Below, piece after piece: positions 6,927 through 19,504 of a stretch of DNA of 20,000 nucleotides. Both the position numbers and the translations under genes were made by a program. Numbering within the stretch: the stretch's first letter is position 1; each line of letters begins with the position of its first letter. This DNA comes from an uncultured virus (IMG/VR IMGVR_UViG_3300046718_001244) (lineage: Duplodnaviria > Heunggongvirae > Uroviricota > Caudoviricetes). Location of the stretch: the IMG/VR virus record IMGVR_UViG_3300046718_001244; one strand, given 5' to 3'. The notes under the pieces were generated by a model. It was given only the letters and a program-made list of their open reading frames with translations. It did not search any database and was not told the origin of the DNA.

Positions 6927-7934
6927 TCAGCCGTGCGGTGCGTGCGCCACCTTGTGGACCGTGAGCGCCTTGGCGGTTTTGCTCACCCAGGTACATCGGT
7001 GGGTGATGTGGCCGTTCTCGCGGAAGCTGTAGTACTCGCCCTTCTTCGCGGAAGAAGCGACGATGACGTGGTCCACAAACTTCACCTCGCTATCGAGCGC
7101 GCCTTCCTGCACGGCCTTGCAGATCGAGGCGGTGAGGCGCTTGTCCTCGGGGGAGGGTCGACAGTGACCGCTCGGGTGGACGTGCACGACGAGAAAGCCC
7201 ATGGCGTTGGTGTGGATCACCGGGCGAAAGATGTCGCTCTTATTGACAGTGACGCGGTTCATCTGGCCGCGCGCGACTTCGACGGGCTTGCACTGGAGCT
7301 GGCCTCGGAGATCGATGGGCAGGACCAGGAAGACCTCCTGGCTCTCTTTCGATAGGGAAGGTCCGACGATGCGGTAGACGTCGGCGGCCGAGGCGCAGGG
7401 TCCCAAGGCTCGGCCTTCCTCGATCTCCTTCGGATCTCGGGTGTTTCGGGCGTAAGGGGACACTTCCTTCGCCGCGGCGCTCGCGGGGATCGGCTTCTCG
7501 CAGGCGATGATGACCTTGCGGCCTCCGCCTTCGGACGCGCGTAGCCTCGTGCGCTCGGCCGTCACCTTGGTGATTCTGGTCGACTCGATCTCGGTCGTGG
7601 GCGCATGCGCCGAGGGATCCGGGCAGGGGGACGTGGGCACGCCCTCGGGGTGAGAATGGCTGCACGGATCTTCCGCGGCGCGTGACGGGTACATGACGTC
7701 CGAGAGGTGCTTGCGTGCCGAAGCCATGCCGCCGCCGAGTGTCGAGCGCGTCGAGACGTGCTCCGGTATGACGTTTCGGCCCATGTACCAGACCTGGACT
7801 TCGCCATCCTTCGGAATGAGCTCGTAGTGGCCTCCGGAAGGAGAGGTCGCGAGCCAGTGGCCGTCGCTCCGCTCGTGCCAGTGGAGCGATCCCGGAACGT
7901 CCTGCGCGATCCCTTCTTCGTACGCGTGCAGCAT
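6927..7934 (-). CDS. RadC-like JAB/MPN domain protein with long novel N-terminal region, about 335 aa
   Basis: The C-terminal domain has SQEVFLVLPID...HVHPSGHCRPSPEDKRLT...FVDHVIV...YYSFRENG, the intact JAB E...HxHx10D motif of RadC type. Start taken at ATG 7934 (MLHAYEEG), which is preceded by an extended -10. Confidence 0.85.
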   Translation of the reverse strand: MLHAYEEGIAQDVPGSLHWHERSDGHWLATSPSGGHYELIPKDGEVQVWYMGRNVIPEHVSTRSTLGGGMASARKHLSDVMYPSRAAEDPCSHSHPEGVPTSPCPDPSAHAPTTEIESTRITKVTAERTRLRASEGGGRKVIIACEKPIPASAAAKEVSPYARNTRDPKEIEEGRALGPCASAADVYRIVGPSLSKESQEVFLVLPIDLRGQLQCKPVEVARGQMNRVTVNKSDIFRPVIHTNAMGFLVVHVHPSGHCRPSPEDKRLTASICKAVQEGALDSEVKFVDHVIVASSAKKGEYYSFRENGHITHRCTWVSKTAKALTVHKVAHAPHG

Positions 7935-7941
7935 GCGCAAC

Positions 7942-7950
7942 AGCCTACCA
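7942..7950 (-). promoter_or_regulatory. Putative extended -10 (TGG-TAGGCT) leaderless promoter of the JAB gene
   Basis: TGGTAGGCT lies 7 nt before ATG 7934, with no SD. Confidence 0.5.
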
Positions 7951-7970
7951 CGTGCTTGGCTTAGGCGAGG

Positions 7971-8204
7971 ATGACCCTGCCCGAGGGACCCGAGAGCGAC
8001 ACGTGCGTGTGCGGAAGCACCCACTGGCACGCGATGAAGGGGCCGAAGATCCTCTGGTGCCGACGATGCGGGTGCATCCGGGCCCTCTTCGAGGACAAGT
8101 GGAGCGTGCCGCTCGACCGGGTCGGCGACATTGCGCGATCCGTCTCGGTCCCCGACGAGGAGCCGACGAAGCCCGGGACGCCGAAGGCGAAGAGGGAACC
8201 CTAG
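7971..8204 (+). CDS. Small Zn-ribbon-like protein, 77 aa
   Basis: CVCGSTHW...WCRRCGC. It fills the gap between two minus-strand genes and shares the CTAG stop palindrome with 8201-8407. Confidence 0.55.
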   Translation: MTLPEGPESDTCVCGSTHWHAMKGPKILWCRRCGCIRALFEDKWSVPLDRVGDIARSVSVPDEEPTKPGTPKAKREP

Positions 8205-8811: not shown

Positions 8812-8889
8812 GGCGCGTCCTCCGATTTCTTTGTCACTACTACGATCTCTTATTGACACTGTCAACATCCAGTGCGCATAGTGCGCCTG
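8812..8889. promoter_or_regulatory. Divergent promoter/operator region
   Basis: AT-richer gap containing the palindrome TTGACA-C-TGTCAA (8853-8865). Rightward: TTGACA-N18-CATAGT-N7-ATG(8890). Leftward: TTGACA-N17-TAGTAG. The direct repeat AGTGCGC is at 8871 and 8880. Confidence 0.75.
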
Positions 8890-9476: not shown

Positions 9477-9682
9477 GGACCGATCGCCCCTGCCTCGTGT
9501 GCGGTCTCGTGGAGCAACTCGCCCAAGGCGTGACGACCGAGGTCGTCTTGGTCGCCGCGATCCTGCACGGCGTCGCCGCCGGCGCGATCCCCGGCGCTCG
9601 GCCGTCGCTCTGCCCCGAGCACGATCTCGTCCGCACGATCCTCGCGCAGACGGTCCAGTCCTCGGAGACCCTCCGCGCATGA
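9473..9682 (+). CDS. Small hypothetical protein (CxxC...CxxH), 69 aa
   Basis: ATGA overlaps at both ends; contains PCLVC and LCPEH. Confidence 0.6.
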   Translation: MRTDRPCLVCGLVEQLAQGVTTEVVLVAAILHGVAAGAIPGARPSLCPEHDLVRTILAQTVQSSETLRA

Positions 9683-11172
9683 ACGCCTTCGAAGAGTACC
9701 TGAAAGGCAAGGGCTCGTTGACGCCAGAGGAACGGGAAGCGTCGCTCGTCGGCGCGGTCCGGATGCTCAAGGCCGAGAACGACAACCTCAAGACCCTCTT
9801 CGACGGCGCGAAGAAGCAGGTCCTGGCGCAAGGCGCCATCGTGGGGGTGCGGGACGGCGTGACTCTCCTCGCGACCGAGCAGGGCATCCTGAGCGTGCGG
9901 AGCCCTACGCACTTCATCAAGCCTCCGAGGGAAGGCGACATCGTCTGGGCGGTTCCCGACTCGGGACAGATCCTCTCGATCGAGACCCAGCCGCCGGCGG
10001 TGGGTCCCACCGTGAAGGTGGCGCGGATCGTCAGCCCCGGACTTCTCGCAATCCACGGGAGCGACATCGCCGACCGGCTCGTCTACTGCCGCGCTTCGCT
10101 CGCCTGCAAGCCGGGCGACGAGGTCGTCCTCGACGGAACGCGCACCGTCGTCGCCGTCAACCTGGGTCAAGAGCAGAGGGTGAGCGAGCTCGCCTTCACC
10201 GAGGAGACGGGGATCACCTGGGACGACATCGCGGGGATGGCGGAAGCGAAGCGGGCCCTCCGGGAAGCGATCGAGGGTCCCGTCTTGAACGCCGAGGTGT
10301 ACCGGGAATTCGGGAAGGCCCCCTGCAAGGGGATCCTGCTCTACGGCGCCCCCGGGAATGGAAAGACCCTCTTCGCCAAGGCCATCGCGACGGCGATCGG
10401 AGAGAGGGGAGGCGGAAAGAAGTCCGGCTTCATCTACGTGAAGGGCCCGGAAGTGCTGCAGGGGATCGTCGGCCAGAGCGAAGGGAAAGTCCGAAAGCTC
10501 TTCGAGGCCGCGAGGGATCACCACGAGGCGCATGGCTACCCGGCGGTCGTCTGCATCGACGAGGCCGACGCGATCCTCGGCAAGCGCACCGACTCGAAAA
10601 TCTCGATGGAGAAGACCATCGTGCCGCAGTTCCTGGCGGAGATGGACGGGATCGATCCGTCGGGGGCTCTCGTCATCCTCCTCACCAACCGCCCCGACAC
10701 CCTGGACCCCGCGGTGACGAGGGAGGGCAGGATCGACCTCAAGATCGCGATCCCACGACCCGACAAGGACGACGCCGCGAAGATCGTCCAGTACCACCTC
10801 GCCAAGCGCTTGCTCGCGCCGGAGTCTGATCTGCTCACGCTCGCGAAGGGGGCGGCCGACGCGCTCTTTAGCCCTCGGCACATGATGTACATGGTCCGCA
10901 TGCACCCGAACCGCGGCATGGACTCGCGGATCGGCTTGGACCGATTCGTGAGCGGGTCGATGTGCGCGGGGGTCGTCGACCGGGCGACGATCCGTGCCAT
11001 CCGCCGGCACTTGGAGGGCGGAGCGCCGAAGGGCGTCACCGCCGAGGACCTCGAGGCGGCCGTGAAGGAGACGCCGGCGCAGATCAAGGGCCTCGCGCAC
11101 GGCGAGGAGATTTCGGCGGTCGTCGGTGAATTCGGCGGCCCGAGCCACGTCAAAAGCGTGGACCCGATATGA
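9679..11172 (+). CDS. ARC/Mpa-like proteasome-type AAA+ ATPase, 497 aa
   Basis: ATG 9679 (ATGA overlap). N-terminal coiled coil, two OB-like segments (REGDIVWAV; KPGDEVVLD), ITWDDIAG, Walker A GAPGNGKT, KGPEVL, Walker B VCIDEAD, KTIVPQFLAEMDG, SRH TNRPDTLDPAVTREGRID and the ARC-like SGSMCAGVVDRA...AIRR. Confidence 0.85.
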   Translation: MNAFEEYLKGKGSLTPEEREASLVGAVRMLKAENDNLKTLFDGAKKQVLAQGAIVGVRDGVTLLATEQGILSVRSPTHFIKPPREGDIVWAVPDSGQILSIETQPPAVGPTVKVARIVSPGLLAIHGSDIADRLVYCRASLACKPGDEVVLDGTRTVVAVNLGQEQRVSELAFTEETGITWDDIAGMAEAKRALREAIEGPVLNAEVYREFGKAPCKGILLYGAPGNGKTLFAKAIATAIGERGGGKKSGFIYVKGPEVLQGIVGQSEGKVRKLFEAARDHHEAHGYPAVVCIDEADAILGKRTDSKISMEKTIVPQFLAEMDGIDPSGALVILLTNRPDTLDPAVTREGRIDLKIAIPRPDKDDAAKIVQYHLAKRLLAPESDLLTLAKGAADALFSPRHMMYMVRMHPNRGMDSRIGLDRFVSGSMCAGVVDRATIRAIRRHLEGGAPKGVTAEDLEAAVKETPAQIKGLAHGEEISAVVGEFGGPSHVKSVDPI

Positions 11173-11366
11173 AACTTCTCACCTGGACCCTCGTCTACCT
11201 GGCGGTCGCCGCTTTGACGCTCGGCATCGCATGGTCGATCCACGAGCGCCACGAGCGCACGAGCGAGGTCGCGGTGGCAGCCTGCGTGATGGGCCTCTTT
11301 TGGCCGTTCTCGATTGTGGTCATACTGGGCGTCAAGATCGGCAACAGGTTGCGGAGCAAGAAGTGA
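11169..11366 (+). CDS. Small membrane protein (two TM helices), 65 aa
   Basis: LLTWTLVYLAVAALTLGIAW and VAVAACVMGLFWPFSIVVILGV. Coupled overlaps at both ends. Confidence 0.7.
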   Translation: MKLLTWTLVYLAVAALTLGIAWSIHERHERTSEVAVAACVMGLFWPFSIVVILGVKIGNRLRSKK

Positions 11367-12205
11367 TGGCCGACGACTTCGGCGACCGGATGAAGGCCTA
11401 CGAGCGGCGAGAAAGCCTCTCGCTCATGCCGCGCGTGCCCGCGATGGCGCGCCTCGACGGGAGAGCGTTTCATGCGTTCACGAAGCACTGCAAGCGGCCG
11501 TTCAGCCTCCTCTTGCACCGGATGATGGTGGCGGTGACGACGCACCTCGTCGTCCACTCGTGCGCCGACGTCGGCTACACGCAGAGTGACGAGATCACGC
11601 TCTGCTGGTTGGGCCAGCCTTTCTTCGACGGGCACGTGCAGAAGATGGTCTCGTCGCTCGCGGCGATGGCGAGCGTGCACCTCCAGACCTTCGCGTGGGC
11701 GCCCGAGGGCGGACCCACGATGGGCGACGTCGTCTTGAAGCGCGAGACGGTCTCGGGCCTCGCGTGGAACAAATCACCCACCTTCGACTGCCGGGTGTGG
11801 TCGGTGCCGGATCGAGTCGAGGCCGCCAACGTCTTTCTCTGGCGCCAGATGGACGCGAGCCGGAACAGCGTCCAGATGGCCGCCAGGCACTACCTCGGCC
11901 ACGCCGCGTGCGACAAGCTCAACGGCAAGGAGCTTCAAGAGGAACTGTACCGCGTCCACGGCATCAACTGGAGCGACTACGACCCGTGGTGCAAGCGGGG
12001 GACGTTCGTGAGGCATGGCAAGACCCTGCGAGCGTTCACGTCGGAGGAGATCGCGGCTCTTCCGGAGAGGCACCACGCGCGGAACGATCCCTCTCTCGTC
12101 GTCGAGCGGAGGGTCCTCGTCGAGGGCGACATCGATCTCCGATCCTATGACGACCGGGTGACCGTCCTCTTCGAGGACGACCCCGCGAACCACGTGCGAC
12201 GATGA
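11366..12205 (+). CDS. thg1: tRNA(His) guanylyltransferase Thg1-like protein (3'-5' polymerase), 279 aa
   Basis: ATG 11366 (TGATG). FGDRMKAYE, ARLDGRAFHAFT, GYTQSDEI, FDGHVQK, FDCRV, WRQMDASRNS and GINW...KRGT are all Thg1/TLP hallmark motifs, including the catalytic Asp residues. Confidence 0.93.
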   Translation: MADDFGDRMKAYERRESLSLMPRVPAMARLDGRAFHAFTKHCKRPFSLLLHRMMVAVTTHLVVHSCADVGYTQSDEITLCWLGQPFFDGHVQKMVSSLAAMASVHLQTFAWAPEGGPTMGDVVLKRETVSGLAWNKSPTFDCRVWSVPDRVEAANVFLWRQMDASRNSVQMAARHYLGHAACDKLNGKELQEELYRVHGINWSDYDPWCKRGTFVRHGKTLRAFTSEEIAALPERHHARNDPSLVVERRVLVEGDIDLRSYDDRVTVLFEDDPANHVRR

Positions 12206-13062
12206 GCGGCAAAACTTCCATCGAATGGACGCGCTCCGAGGACGGCACCGCCGGGTACACTTGGAACCCCGTTCGTGGATGCCGCGAGGTCTCTCCTGGG
12301 TGCGACCACTGCTACGCCCGCACCTTCGCCGAGCGGTGGCGAGGAGTGCCCGGTCACCCCTACGAGGCGGGCTTCGATCCCCGGTTCGTTCCAGGGCACC
12401 TGACCGATCCCCTGCGGTGGAGAACTCCGCGCACGGTCTTCGTCAACTCGATGAGCGACCTCTTTCAGGGTGCGTTCTCCGACGAGCAGATCGCAGCGGT
12501 CTTCGGCGTCATGGGCGCCTGCCCGCGGCACATCTTTCAGGTGCTCACCAAGCGCGAACTGCGCCTTGGCAAGTGGCACGCGCACGCGCTGACGGCCATC
12601 GGCCCTTCGGGTCGCCCGCTCGGGCCTGCCGGTTGGTGCAACGAGGCGGCCGTGTGGGCTACGACCGAAGAGGGCGTCTTCCCGAAGGGTCTCGCTGGCT
12701 ACCGCCGCGACTGGCCTCTCCCGAACGTGTGGCAGGGCGTTTCGGTCGAGAGCCGGGACTACCTTTCGCGGATCGACGAGCTTCGCGCCATCCCTGCCGC
12801 GGTCCGATTCCTCTCGCTCGAGCCGTTGCTCGAGGACCTCGGGACCATTGACTTGACCGGCATCGACTGGGTCATCGTCGGAGGGGAGAGTGGGCTCGGG
12901 GCGAGGCTCATGCCCATCGAGTGGGTGCGGTCGATCCGGGACCAGTGCGAAGCCGCCGGAGTCCACTTCTTTTTCAAACAATGGGGAGGTCTCTCGAAGA
13001 AGCGCTTCGGGCGCGAGCTCGACGGACGCACCTACGACGCGATGCCCGCGAGGACGCCATGA
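12202..13062 (+). CDS. DUF5131 / phage Gp37-Gp68 family protein (three-Cys, radical-SAM-like), 286 aa
   Basis: TSIEWT...TWNPVRGCREVSPGCDHCYA, VFVNSMSDLF, FQVLTKR, NVWQGVSVE, RFLSLEPLL, WVIVGGESG and FFFKQWGG. Confidence 0.93.
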   Translation: MSGKTSIEWTRSEDGTAGYTWNPVRGCREVSPGCDHCYARTFAERWRGVPGHPYEAGFDPRFVPGHLTDPLRWRTPRTVFVNSMSDLFQGAFSDEQIAAVFGVMGACPRHIFQVLTKRELRLGKWHAHALTAIGPSGRPLGPAGWCNEAAVWATTEEGVFPKGLAGYRRDWPLPNVWQGVSVESRDYLSRIDELRAIPAAVRFLSLEPLLEDLGTIDLTGIDWVIVGGESGLGARLMPIEWVRSIRDQCEAAGVHFFFKQWGGLSKKRFGRELDGRTYDAMPARTP

Positions 13063-13577
13063 CCAAGCGCCCCGCGTCCGTCCTCTCGCCCGAGGTCGTC
13101 GCAGCGGCGCGCATCGCCTCGAAGGCGCTGTCGAAGGCGGGGATCCGCCACGTCCTCATCGGGGGACTCGCCGTCAACGCCTACGGCTTCGTCCGAAACA
13201 CGACGGACGTCGACTTTCTCGTTGGGAGTGAAGCGTACGTCGAGCAACCTGGCGGCTTCGTCACGCTCGCGCCGGGCGTGCCCATCGCGATCGGGTCGGT
13301 GGTCGTCGACACGCTCGACGACGACGCCCTCTCGGAGGACGAGACCGAGGATCCCGAAACGGAGTGGGAGGGCGTCCCCCTCGTATCGCTCGAGGGGCTC
13401 TTCTTTCTGAAACTCAAGGCGTGGAGGCGGAAGGACCAGATGGATCTCGTGGAGCTTTTGAAGGCCGGAGCCGACGAGGACACGCTCAGGGACTACCTCG
13501 TCCTGCTCGGGGGAGATCCGAGCTTGCTCGAGCGGTTCGATACGGCGGTGGTGCGTGCCAACGAGGAGGAGACATGA
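13059..13577 (+). CDS. AbiEii/DUF1814-like nucleotidyltransferase, 172 aa
   Basis: ATG 13059 (ATGA). LIGGLAVNAYGFVRNTTDVDFLV (GG...RxTxDxD) and LKLKAWRRKDQMDL (K...RxKDxxD). Confidence 0.8.
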   Translation: MTKRPASVLSPEVVAAARIASKALSKAGIRHVLIGGLAVNAYGFVRNTTDVDFLVGSEAYVEQPGGFVTLAPGVPIAIGSVVVDTLDDDALSEDETEDPETEWEGVPLVSLEGLFFLKLKAWRRKDQMDLVELLKAGADEDTLRDYLVLLGGDPSLLERFDTAVVRANEEET

Positions 13578-14008
13578 TGACCATCGACAACGTGACGATT
13601 GAAGCCTGCGCGAGAGCCGCCCACGAGGTGAACCGCGCTTACTGCCTCGCCCTCGGCGACACGTCGCAACCTCCGTGGGAGGAGGCTCCCGAGTGGCAGA
13701 AGTCGAGCGCCCGCAAGGGCGTCCAGGGCGTCATCTCCGGCAACGGTCCCGAGCAGTCCCACGAGTCGTGGCTCGCGGAGAAGGCGGAGAGCGGGTGGAA
13801 GTACGGGCCGGTCAAGGACCCCGAGAAGAAGGAGCACCCGTGCTTCGTGCCGTACCGAGAGCTTCCGCCGGAGCAGAAGAAGAAGGACTCCCTCTTCGTC
13901 GGCACGGTCCGCTGCGTCGCCGCCGCGCTCGGGGCGACGGTGGTGTACCCGGCGACGCTCGGAGAGCCTACGAGGACGATTGACTGGTCGAAGACCGAGG
14001 GTCTCTGA
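13574..14008 (+). CDS. RyR (ryanodine receptor repeat) domain phage protein, 144 aa
   Basis: ARAAHEVNRAYC...PEQSHESWLAEKAESGWKYGPVKDPEKKEHPCFVPYRELPPEQKKKD. Confidence 0.88.
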   Translation: MMTIDNVTIEACARAAHEVNRAYCLALGDTSQPPWEEAPEWQKSSARKGVQGVISGNGPEQSHESWLAEKAESGWKYGPVKDPEKKEHPCFVPYRELPPEQKKKDSLFVGTVRCVAAALGATVVYPATLGEPTRTIDWSKTEGL

Positions 14009-17628: not shown

Positions 17629-17855
17629 CTCGCCGCTACGTGACCCTCACGATGACCTCCCCGAAGAAGGATCCCCGATCGGGGGATCCCTTCCGGTGGT
17701 CGGTCATCGTGAGCGAGGAGATCGCAGAGGAGACGAGGGCCGCGTGGGAGGCGCGCGGCGTCTCGGTCTCTGTCACACGGACGTCGGATCCCGAAGGATC
17801 GCCTGGCGAAGCGCGATCCCGTGGTCGTGGACGGCGAGCCGTCCGATCTTCCTAG
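17625..17855 (+). CDS. Hypothetical protein, 76 aa (last gene of the rightward operon)
   Basis: GTGA overlap with the previous gene. The 3' end overlaps the convergent gene by 83 nt. Confidence 0.45.
   Translation: MTRRYVTLTMTSPKKDPRSGDPFRWSVIVSEEIAEETRAAWEARGVSVSVTRTSDPEGSPGEARSRGRGRRAVRSS
17664..17693 (-). terminator. Possible intrinsic terminator hairpin for the replication operon
   Basis: The minus strand reads GGATCCCC-CGATC-GGGGATCC followed by TTCTTC, about 80 nt downstream of the stop at 17773. The U-tract is imperfect. Confidence 0.35.
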
Positions 17856-18177
17856 AGGCGCTGACGATCGTCGTGTGGTCGCGTCCGAAGATCCCCCCGA
17901 TCTCCGCGAACGCGAGTTTGGTGTGCCGGCGGAGCCACGCCTGGAGCTCGTGGCGGGCCATGGTGACGGTCGGGCGGTGGTCGCGGCCGTAGAGCGCGTC
18001 GATGACGACGCCTCGGGCCGAGCAGATCGCGCGGGCCGCGGTCGTCGCGCCGAGCTGCGTGAGGTGCTTGGCGAAGGGGGAGTCGCCGAGCGGCGCCGGC
18101 GTGGGGAGCCGAGGCCGCCCGAGGACCTTCGCCGCTCGCTCGTTCAACTCGGCTTCGGTGAATTCGAGGGCGCTCAT
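17773..18177 (-). CDS. Stand-alone DnaA C-terminal (domain IV) HTH protein, 134 aa
   Basis: ATG 18177 (TGATG). LYGRDHRPTVTMARHELQAWLRRHTKLAFAEIGGIFGRDHTTIVSASRKI matches the Bac_DnaA_C signature (IG..FGRDHTTV). Confidence 0.85.
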   Translation of the reverse strand: MSALEFTEAELNERAAKVLGRPRLPTPAPLGDSPFAKHLTQLGATTAARAICSARGVVIDALYGRDHRPTVTMARHELQAWLRRHTKLAFAEIGGIFGRDHTTIVSASRKIGRLAVHDHGIALRQAILRDPTSV

Positions 18178-18710
18178 CAGGGCTCCATCGGGACGACCTG
18201 GTGGCCGCATTGGATCACTCTTGCGCCTTCGAGGATCCGACGCGCAATGCCTTCGCCGTACCGACGGCTCACCTCTCCCAAGGGAAGCCACGTGGTTACC
18301 CATAGTGGCAGGCACTCCTCGTACCGCGCGATGACAATGGTCGGGATGGGTGTCATCTGGACCAACGGATCTTGTCCGAGATCGTCGATCACTAGGAGCT
18401 TCGCCGAGATGGCCGCGTCTCGGATGCGCCGGTCGTTGTCGATGACCAATCGGTGCGCGTTGACGAACAGGATCTCGCTCTGGTGCTGGACGCCCATCGC
18501 CTCGATTCGCTCACGAAACGCCGCCGCCGCGAGGCTACTTTTCCCGGATCCGGAGCCGCCAACCAACACGATCTTATTCTTGCTCGCCATCGCCGCGAGC
18601 GTCTCGGCGATGGCTTCTTTCCGCTCGACGCGTTCGGCCAGGTCAGGCTCTCCAATCTTGAGCCCGCGCGTAAACTTCGGAATGAAGGAGTCCAGTGTGT
18701 TGACGTCCAT
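18177..18710 (-). CDS. DnaC/IstB-like AAA+ ATPase, paralog 2, 177 aa
   Basis: ATG 18710 (TGATG). Walker A GGSGSGKS, Walker B LLVIDDLG, ARYE...LWVTT and RYGEGIARRI. Confidence 0.85.
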   Translation of the reverse strand: MDVNTLDSFIPKFTRGLKIGEPDLAERVERKEAIAETLAAMASKNKIVLVGGSGSGKSSLAAAAFRERIEAMGVQHQSEILFVNAHRLVIDNDRRIRDAAISAKLLVIDDLGQDPLVQMTPIPTIVIARYEECLPLWVTTWLPLGEVSRRYGEGIARRILEGARVIQCGHQVVPMEP

Positions 18711-19504
18711 CAGAGCTTCTCCATGTCGACCGCGCGGTTGCCGCACTGGATGATGGTGGCGTCCTGCAGGATTCGCCGCGCGAACCCGTCCCCGTATCGC
18801 CGAGTCATCTCGGCGCGACTGAGCCACGTGGTCACCCAGAGTCGCCTGCCGGCCTCGTAGCGCCCAGAGACGAGTTCCGGAACGGCACTGTTTCGGATAC
18901 CTGGGTACGGATCCTGTCCGAGGTCGTCGAGCACCAGTAGCGGAGCCTTCATGGCTCGTTCGACCTCCGGAGGCATCCCATGCCCCATGGGGTAGAGATC
19001 GCGCGCAAACGCCATGCGCCGCGCCTCTGCAAATTGCACTAGATTTATTTTGCCACCGAAGCGATGCCGGATCGCTGCCGCTACAAGGCTAGTTTTTCCG
19101 GTTCCGGAGTGACCCGTGAAGACGATCTTGCGCTCGTCGCCTTCGCACGCCTCCCTCGCCTGTTCGATGGCTTCCTTTCGCTGCACGCGATCGGCTAGCT
19201 CCTGCGTGCCGAAGCGAAGATGGGTCACAAATCGCGGTAGAATGAGTTGCAGGACGTCGAACTCCACCGGCTCGCGGTCCACGAACTCTCCCGTCGGCGC
19301 CATCGTTCCACGGGCCGCCGCGATTTTGCTCATTCGCTCTCCAAGCGAGCGAAACTCGTCCTCCAAGCTCTTGATGCCCCTACCTTCCGGCGCTGCTTGT
19401 CGCGCCGCTTCTATCTCATCGCGCCGACGCTTGAGCGCCTCCCACTCCTCGGCCGTAGGGTCTACTTTCTTCGGTCCATCCTTTTTGTCGTTCCCGTCTT
19501 CCAT
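18710..19504 (-). CDS. DnaC/IstB-like AAA+ ATPase (helicase loader), paralog 1, 264 aa
   Basis: SD AAGGAG. Walker A GHSGTGKT, Walker B LLVLDDLG, GRYE...LWVTT and RYGDGFARRI, with an N-terminal coiled-coil extension. Confidence 0.88.
   Translation of the reverse strand: MEDGNDKKDGPKKVDPTAEEWEALKRRRDEIEAARQAAPEGRGIKSLEDEFRSLGERMSKIAAARGTMAPTGEFVDREPVEFDVLQLILPRFVTHLRFGTQELADRVQRKEAIEQAREACEGDERKIVFTGHSGTGKTSLVAAAIRHRFGGKINLVQFAEARRMAFARDLYPMGHGMPPEVERAMKAPLLVLDDLGQDPYPGIRNSAVPELVSGRYEAGRRLWVTTWLSRAEMTRRYGDGFARRILQDATIIQCGNRAVDMEKL

Follow-up and report, generated by a model that had tools for sequence, protein, structure and literature searches.

The window analysed here, a 20,000-nucleotide stretch of DNA corresponding to bases 51366-71365 of the 71,365-base soil virus record G000, encodes a AAA+ ATPase of the ARC/Mpa fold (P0001) that lies outside the actinobacterial ARC clade and belongs to a tailless sister family of ARC. 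The loss of the C-terminal tail is an old trait of this family; what is new is a single-ring motor that has been orphaned and whose recurrent, conserved pore loop is non-aromatic. The aromatic pore residue is regarded as the defining grip of AAA+ unfoldases.

That the ATPase is virus-encoded rests on the database virus label of G000 and on its gene content. Gene calling gave 130 ORFs, including lysozyme-like, glycoside-hydrolase and fibre-like genes, two DnaC-like loaders, a sliding clamp, GroES, a methylase and a resolvase; no match to terminase, portal or HK97 capsid was found in G000 when 123 of its proteins were compared with Pfam and 77 with PHROGs. A core block of genes (g89-g95) is common to 10-11 of the 11 related IMG/VR records, the complete ones of which measure 70-78 kb. 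The ATPase is absent from all 11 of these records, nine of them at least 90% complete (positive control, three of three), and is thus an accessory gene within the virus group. The capsid candidate g91 gave a single-sequence fold with a pLDDT of 30; profile searches against PDB and Pfam returned nothing on its capsid identity, while the Atlas linked it to unnamed viral clusters (0.93-0.94) and PRD1-P3-type clusters (0.76-0.77) and had no usable match for a relative. A PRD1-P3-type capsid may be taken as a lead only, and no capsid gene is firmly identified in G000. The nearest named cellular relatives of the G000 glycosyltransferase are Deltaproteobacteria, Sandaracinaceae and Myxococcales (39-44% identity; organism names stand on four of the 120 matches listed), which may be a weak hint at a Myxococcota host. 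A Fis-like gene had no plasmid match.

The ATPase gene (9679-11172, + strand; the features within it are given on the same strand) is an uninterrupted ORF of 497 aa with the codon pattern of a real gene (GC1/2/3 of 0.66/0.44/0.90). Contigs from two other runs with different study codes, X2 and X3, have 0 differences in the pore loop (X3 record 21, 10318-10482) or at the stop codon (X2 record 16 and X3 record 22), so both oddities of P0001 are real and are not assembly errors. The gene lies in a run of abutting + strand accessory genes together with Thg1, DUF5131, RyR, DUF1643 and KGG. The Thg1-like tRNA-His guanylyltransferase gene (11366-12205, + strand) is a neighbour only and not a conserved partner. 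The run is headed by a Sigma70-like site (8853-8882, + strand; 10 of 12 matches), which is weak because one such site was found against 0.4 ± 0.7 expected. A RadC-like JAB gene (6927-7934) was considered as a deubiquitinase partner and rejected, being common only to two related virus loci.

Profile and tree analyses place P0001 next to ARC but outside it. TIGR03689 was its best NCBIfam model, at 253.5 bits against a cut-off of 504.75, and P0001 is therefore not an ARC proper; with the PAN, Rpt, Cdc48 and FtsH family models it stayed far under the cut-offs, and the architectures of these families (one OB domain, two AAA domains or a protease domain) are unlike its own. Of 7998 proteins scored in a homologue search, 1109 reached E ≤ 1e-20, and the best 120 of these were used. 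After addition of 20 viral loci, 80 of 307 metagenomic loci, 80 of 97 genomic loci, two phage records and actinobacterial ARC loci, grouping at 80% identity with P0001-P0012 all retained left 209 rows. These sort into three groups: 22 Cdc48-type or other outgroup rows, 32 cellular ARC rows (Actinobacteria, Nitrospina and a DPANN set), and a branch of 155 rows (SH 97) that contains P0001 and is referred to below as the family. The split between ARC and this branch received a support of 100 in a 42-row IQ-TREE analysis. An earlier note on this DNA, made from its letters, had named P0001 an ARC/Mpa-type protein, which is supported as to anatomy; ARC, and not PAN, Cdc48 or FtsH, is the nearest cellular group, and P0001 sits on a sister branch outside ARC proper. 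The family draws on IMG/VR records of 32-533 kb and on MAGs of Patescibacteria and Bacteroidales, and Brevundimonas phage Strzyga is a long-branch member of uncertain placement. No paper describing this phage/CPR ARC-like family was found in the literature covered, which took in few subscription journals, nor were data on an Ile at the F341 site of Mpa; the available part of a jumbo-phage survey names MoxR, BCS1, ClpA and ClpX chaperones and not the tailless ARC-like family. A scan of viral contigs with a single protein yielded no relative, and a degenerate Gly-Ile loop pattern had 0 matches in the same contigs.

P0001 begins with a helix predicted to form a coiled coil (residues 16-45, 9724-9813) that is shorter than that of ARC, followed by two beta-rich domains (residues 49-170, 9823-10188) assigned to a Mpa-type double-OB collar by the whole-length fold match and without a Pfam OB match, the AAA+ module, and, at the C terminus, a beta-grasp-like region (10882-11169), where the chain stops on the last predicted strand (491-496) without GQYL and ends ...KSVDPI. 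Mpa is described in the available text of two papers as having four parts, namely coil, double OB, AAA+ and beta-grasp (PMC8142254, PMC8755798). The coil pattern N-x-[RKH]-L-x3-L-x2-A-[RK], present in 12 of 23 actinobacterial ARC rows, occurs in two of the 155 family rows and is absent from P0001. In an AlphaFold2 model (pLDDT 93, 112-row alignment), a single helix of 30 residues and a pair of beta-rich domains accompany the AAA+ module, with a hairpin/strand domain at the C terminus. Foldseek ranked Mpa chains at the top (7pxc_F, E 1e-33, TM 0.75/0.77 over 484 columns), with 26S Rpt subunits reaching a TM of only about 0.55 and BFVD returning partial AAA matches only (TM ≤ 0.47). A complex prediction of two P0001 N-terminal halves with Streptomyces Pup scored 0.02 and makes no call either way.

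The catalytic motifs are intact in P0001 and almost unchanged throughout the family: Walker A GAPGNGKT (10345-10368; K229 in 154 of 155 rows), Walker B VVCIDE (10546-10563; E295 in all 155), and sensor-1 N337 with the arginine fingers R348 and R351 (10687-10731; each in all 155). KGPEVL precedes pore loop 1, which reads Q-G262-I263-V-G (10459-10473) and has Gly-Ile in place of a Lys-aromatic pair (K340-F341 in Mpa). The pore loop 2 region (R303-T313, 10585-10617) contains I-S-M versus V/I-S-S-D in ARC and is almost the same in the Gly-Ile clade and its aromatic sisters. The other motifs that the earlier note had quoted, KTIVPQFLAEMDG and SGSM..VVDRA..AIR, are likewise present in the ORF, and its description of P0001 proved accurate: the Mpa fold extends along the entire chain (TM 0.75-0.8), the Walker motifs and both arginines are intact, and the absence of an aromatic from QGIVG and of GQYL from the C terminus recurs in the independent contigs.

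A GQYL end was found in one of the 155 family rows and a penultimate Tyr in two (one row open-ended), and tail loss is therefore a family trait that is not peculiar to the virus of G000; the statement that P0001 could not dock on the 20S core in the normal way agrees with the lack of GQYL in P0001 and in nearly all family rows. The missing tail measures 23 residues by careful alignment versus 6-7 by automatic alignment, the former agreeing better with the last predicted strand. A search of 38 family carriers (17 cellular genomes and 21 viral records, G000 included) gave no Pup ligase, with both controls positive, and PF03136 and PF00227 had no match in G000. The proteasome family was matched in none of 22 viral records, namely 21 records and G000 in addition; 14 of the 17 cellular carriers had no proteasome/HslV-family match, and the other three had a single match each, of unassigned type. 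As the carriers searched were mostly incomplete MAGs or viral records and did not include the host of G000 itself, the absence of Pup ligase and proteasome means 'not found'. The ARC proteins of three Actinomycetaceae loci (L146, L149 and L162) also end without GQYL, and the actinomycete genome of L146 has Pup ligases and no proteasome-subunit match. Core subunits are reported, in the available text, to have been lost in about half of Actinobacteria (PMC6466877), and the ARC of C. glutamicum is proposed, in the part of the source available, to unfold or disassemble pupylated ferritin without the 20S core (PMC8223512). In phages and CPR bacteria, our survey shows, the annotation 'proteasome-associated ATPase' frequently denotes a proteasome-free family.

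Elsewhere in the family, the ATPase tends to travel with two partner genes. When neighbouring proteins of 70 aa or more were clustered, a single companion proved widespread: a membrane protein, DUF1360, that bears Cys-x-x-Cys and is encoded at most 1 kb downstream in 40 of the 102 family loci that have room. In 70 of the 121 loci that have room, the ATPase gene is immediately followed by a Pup-like mini-gene (an ORF of 55-95 aa within 250 nt downstream), 27 of the 70 having seeded the profile; its product starts with a basic, Gly-rich stretch, has an acidic helix and in most cases ends in Cys-x-Cys. The same profile matches Pup-like ORFs near four cellular ARC loci, three of these ORFs ending in GGQ and one in TGQ, and Pfam Pup was weakly touched by one of five partners scanned (E 0.058). 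Profile and six-frame searches found no Pup-like mini-gene in G000, which also has no DUF1360, and the position that the mini-gene holds in the family is taken by a 65-aa hydrophobic ORF (11169-11366, + strand) that is neither Pup-like nor DUF1360. With both partner genes absent, the G000 ATPase is an orphan of a three-gene module. The related loci L026, L027 and L028, and also L049 and L093, had no Pup-like or DUF1360 match, and in a 55-row clade around P0001 all 10 loci with room were without a Pup-like profile match, although one of them (L032) by eye seems to hold a diverged partner. The profile overlooked diverged partners at some loci, L032 and L024 for instance, so G000 could have a highly diverged tag, or one encoded in a portion absent from the record. 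The neighbour analysis revealed no substrate or conserved neighbour pointing to a target, and neither the neighbour clusters nor a Pfam scan of 146 neighbours showed a protease gene that accompanies the family. Other family loci adjoin PARP, NUDIX, ADP-ribosylhydrolase and RNA ligase genes, and such accessory-gene surroundings fit a stress or conflict role and name no target.

The pore loop, by comparison with the tail, changed in separate lineages. Position 263 is Trp, Tyr or Phe in 143 of the 155 rows, Ile in eight, Leu in three and Met in one; all eight Ile rows have Gly at 262, and neither residue occurs at its site in the other 147. Around P0001, the pair is common to its four closest relatives only (67-70% identity): P0006 and P0007 (56-58% identity) have Ser-Tyr and P0010, the ATPase of L027, has Lys-Tyr. 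P0006 belongs to L026, a locus syntenic with the window over at least nine genes that keeps Tyr-Val-Gly, and the aromatic loops of such same-group relatives place the switch to Gly-Ile inside this virus group. The eight Ile rows form four lineages (the window clade, P0054, P0085 and L049), and each of them, in a tree calculated without the loop columns, shares a starred group with relatives whose loop is aromatic. On 32 rows, AU tests rejected a single Gly-Ile clade (p 6e-91) as well as all six pairings of lineages (p 3e-4 to 1e-48). The Gly-Ile pair is shown, as judged from these trees, to have arisen separately four times, the lineages having been chosen by motif after the first tree was seen and three of the four being single sequences. 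The residues flanking Gly-Ile differ between lineages, which bears on loop-segment transfer between viruses, and no other derived state shared by at least three of the four was found among 367 columns. Within the window clade, identity is 95% in both pore-loop regions, 86% in the AAA core and 51-63% in the N-domains, and catalytic residues are intact in the Gly-Ile members; such strong loop conservation fits any selected role, that of a decoy included. The earlier note had read the loss of tail and aromatic as a single viral degeneration, which does not hold, the tail being missing family-wide and in the ARC of L146 and the aromatic being kept in 143 of 155 rows. Of the two losses whose conservation among viral homologues it proposed to examine, that of the tail is family-wide, and that of the aromatic is shared, among the close relatives, by the nearest four only; close homologues with an aromatic loop and an HbYX tail were among its own grounds for refutation, and the aromatic retained at 56-58% identity speaks in part against it.

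Its tailless family, the absence of a tag gene from G000 and the recurrence of Gly-Ile make P0001 likely a stand-alone protein remodeller rather than a poison of host machinery. We judge the chance somewhat better than even that P0001 unfolds or remodels proteins with neither proteasome nor tag, its pore being retuned to a substrate of its own, as predicted from the features above; a repurposed remodeller was among the roles offered by the earlier note and is supported as one option. P0001 would form a homohexamer and hydrolyse ATP. The ancestral module of ATPase, Cys-tailed Pup-like peptide and DUF1360 membrane protein may have delivered substrates by its own tag, and once the tag gene was lost the motor would capture substrate directly through its variable coil/OB collar. 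The Gly-Ile-Val-Gly loop would still thread or tug the chain, probably with less force, and the chain would be released instead of being handed to a protease; the likeliest class of target is a host or viral complex dismantled during infection. A decoy or weak-grip ring, which binds ATP and substrates or tags, or joins a host AAA ring, and slows the host unfoldase by pulling poorly, is improbable. Both gripping residues of Mpa, identified as K340 and F341 in the available text of PMC8755798, are replaced in P0001, the F341A change is reported in the accessible part of PMC8142254 to abolish Mpa unfolding, and the selection implied by recurrent Gly-Ile origins would also be expected of a dominant-negative role. 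Yet Pup ligase was found in none of the 38 carriers searched, among which the host itself does not figure, and a proteasome gene in few, and the sole host hint, Myxococcota-like, is weak, so that the decoy, poison and Pup-sink roles proposed in the earlier note are not supported. Such roles would moreover need a host ARC/Pup system, and distant family members reside in phages isolated on Brevundimonas; BLAST against actinobacterial ARC aligns the AAA part only (33%) and not the ring-building coil/OB collar, the syntenic relative L026 retains Tyr-Val-Gly, and, although many different changes could cost a poison its grip, it is one pair of residues that recurs.

It is rather less probable still that P0001 is an orphan motor that borrows its tag, a Pup-like peptide supplied by the host, a co-infecting element or an unrecognised viral gene. 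The usual family neighbour is Pup-like (70 of 121 loci) and its profile reaches four cellular ARC loci, the coil and OB collar are retained in P0001, and G000, at 71 kb against 70-78 kb for its complete relatives, may lack a piece; set against this are the two fruitless searches for a Pup-like gene in G000, the 10 matchless loci of the 55-row clade (with L032 appearing diverged by eye) and the missing ARC coil pattern. Relaxed selection, by which the pore loop of an accessory moron drifted after partner loss, would agree with the absence of the ATPase from 11 of 11 related records, with the lack of fixed neighbours and with four further rows that have Leu or Met at 263. We nevertheless regard it as very unlikely, given that the loop keeps 95% identity in a clade with N-domains at only 51-63%, that Gly and Ile always come together, in four lineages, and that the catalytic residues are untouched. 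Equally slight is the chance that the ring feeds a compartmental protease of the host through its beta-grasp face, without GQYL: the beta-grasp region is kept in P0001, the Mpa hairpin is described as touching the 20S alpha ring (PMC8755798, available text) and competition for the 20S in the absence of GQYL is reported for Cpa (PMC8223512, likewise in the part available), but no protease gene appears in the neighbour clusters or among the 146 neighbours scanned with Pfam, and 14 of the 17 cellular carriers have no proteasome/HslV match.

P0001 offers a route to fish for a viral remodelling target. A broader and doubtful extension is that viruses have four times rebuilt a proteasome-type motor as a single ring with an aromatic-free Gly-Ile loop and a specific substrate, needing no tag, adaptor or protease; if so, the motor would be a naturally occurring exception to the rule by which an aromatic pore residue is required in single-ring unfoldases, and a new viral tool to dismantle a host complex, e.g., a defence or gene-expression assembly. 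One virus group provides matched natural pairs (Gly-Ile versus Ser-Tyr or Lys-Tyr) with pore loop 2 almost unchanged, and the contribution of the aromatic and of its replacement is thus directly testable.

Among known systems, Mpa/ARC (TIGR03689; PDB 7pxc, 7px9 and 5kwa) shares with P0001 the whole-length fold (TM 0.75-0.8 over about 480 columns) and all catalytic motifs, and is its nearest cellular group in the trees. P0001 differs in scoring half the family cut-off, in its separate branch (SH 97-100) and shorter coil, in its lack of GQYL, in having Gly-Ile where Mpa/ARC has Lys-Phe/Tyr, and in a record without a Pup, PafA, Dop or 20S gene. The ARC of proteasome-less Actinobacteria such as C. 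glutamicum also operates without the 20S, according to the available text of PMC8223512, and that of Actinomycetaceae (L146, L149 and L162) resembles P0001 in having no GQYL end, but these proteins keep a Lys-Phe-Val-Gly loop and pupylation enzymes. The phage/CPR module of tailless ATPase, Cys-tailed Pup-like peptide and DUF1360, of which the literature covered gave no account, contains members of the same family and tree branch, equally tailless, whereas G000 is without both partner genes and the loop of P0001 is non-aromatic. The cultured Brevundimonas phages Strzyga (ON529867) and Polewnik (ON529863) carry a distant tailless relative (34.5% over residues 183-497); unlike P0001, it is known by annotation only, has a Met-Tyr-Val-Gly loop and no OB-like N terminus by alignment, and resides in siphoviruses, the accessible part of whose isolation paper does not mention a 'proteasome-associated ATPase' gene. 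A further parallel is the D1 ring of Rix7/NVL, which likewise has Gly and an aliphatic residue where Lys-aromatic is expected. In the text of PMC6355894 available, the G-h-S-G loop of Rix7 D1 is described as gripping polypeptide without an aromatic in an essential AAA ring, and its change to Lys-Tyr-Val as causing a severe growth defect; Rix7 has two rings, the aromatic D2 loop being taken as the main motor, and for this reason it is not proof that a single Gly-Ile ring can unfold anything. As a eukaryotic double ring with an unrelated N-domain, Rix7/NVL is an analogy rather than kin: its exceptional loop sits beside a second, aromatic motor, that of the ATPase family described here in what would be a single ring.

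The core gene block of the virus group that includes the 71,365-base record G000 lies outside the window on the minus strand (G000 41827-49127, corresponding to L003:6827-14127). This group consists of unclassified soil viruses of 70-78 kb, and direct terminal repeats are present in several relatives. The g91 gene of the core block encodes a protein of 470 aa with 224 homologues at E <= 0.001, which showed 50-84% identity among the 120 matches listed (of 224). This protein is a candidate major capsid protein, for which Atlas gave a weak lead to PRD1-P3-type folds. No terminase match was found, and no packaging ATPase with a canonical Walker A was detected in a six-frame scan. Also outside the window are a HicA-domain gene with a small ORF upstream (G000 7763-8199; locus L001) and a stand-alone GroES gene (G000 38013-38381), the latter common to 7 of 11 related virus loci.

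Within the window, a RadC-like JAB domain protein (6927-7934, minus strand) is 42-53% conserved in the related virus loci L026 and L027. The plus-strand gene row at window 11366-14008 contains a Thg1-like gene, a DUF5131 gene, an ORF with a nucleotidyltransferase-like motif (recognized by eye; no family matches) and a RyR-domain gene, and resembles a repair or counter-defence island. On the minus strand, window 17773-19333 holds two DnaC/IstB-like loader genes in tandem, and behind them lies the gene for a protein with a DnaA C-terminal helix-turn-helix.

Among the rows of the tailless ATPase family, only P0114 ends in GQYL; it is placed inside the tailless branch, and its tail possibly represents a re-acquisition. 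G064, the 101 kb virus record of locus L014, contains two good matches to the Cys-tailed Pup-like profile (positions 20266 and 95274) and a third, weaker one. In L064/L065, the Pup-like part is fused to an additional domain with a Gly-Gly end.

ABC transporter genes lie immediately 5' of the tailless ARC-like ATPase in L112:5741-9514 and about 20 further Bacteroidales loci. These loci carry a Pup-like ORF without a Cys tail 3' of the ATPase, and lack DUF1360. An ATPase subclade in seven loci (L020, L022, L080, L081, L086, L105 and L130) has PARP/WGR, NUDIX, ADP-ribosylglycohydrolase and RNA ligase neighbours in place of the Pup-like module.

A tailless ARC sister clade was observed in L134 (4604-9311), L136, L137 and L148, which are DPANN-type and other archaeal MAG contigs. 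A conserved 140-aa ORF is located 3' of the ATPase in this clade, and four loci also have Prok-JAB and ThiF/E1-like genes there; this gene set is a ubiquitin-like operon.
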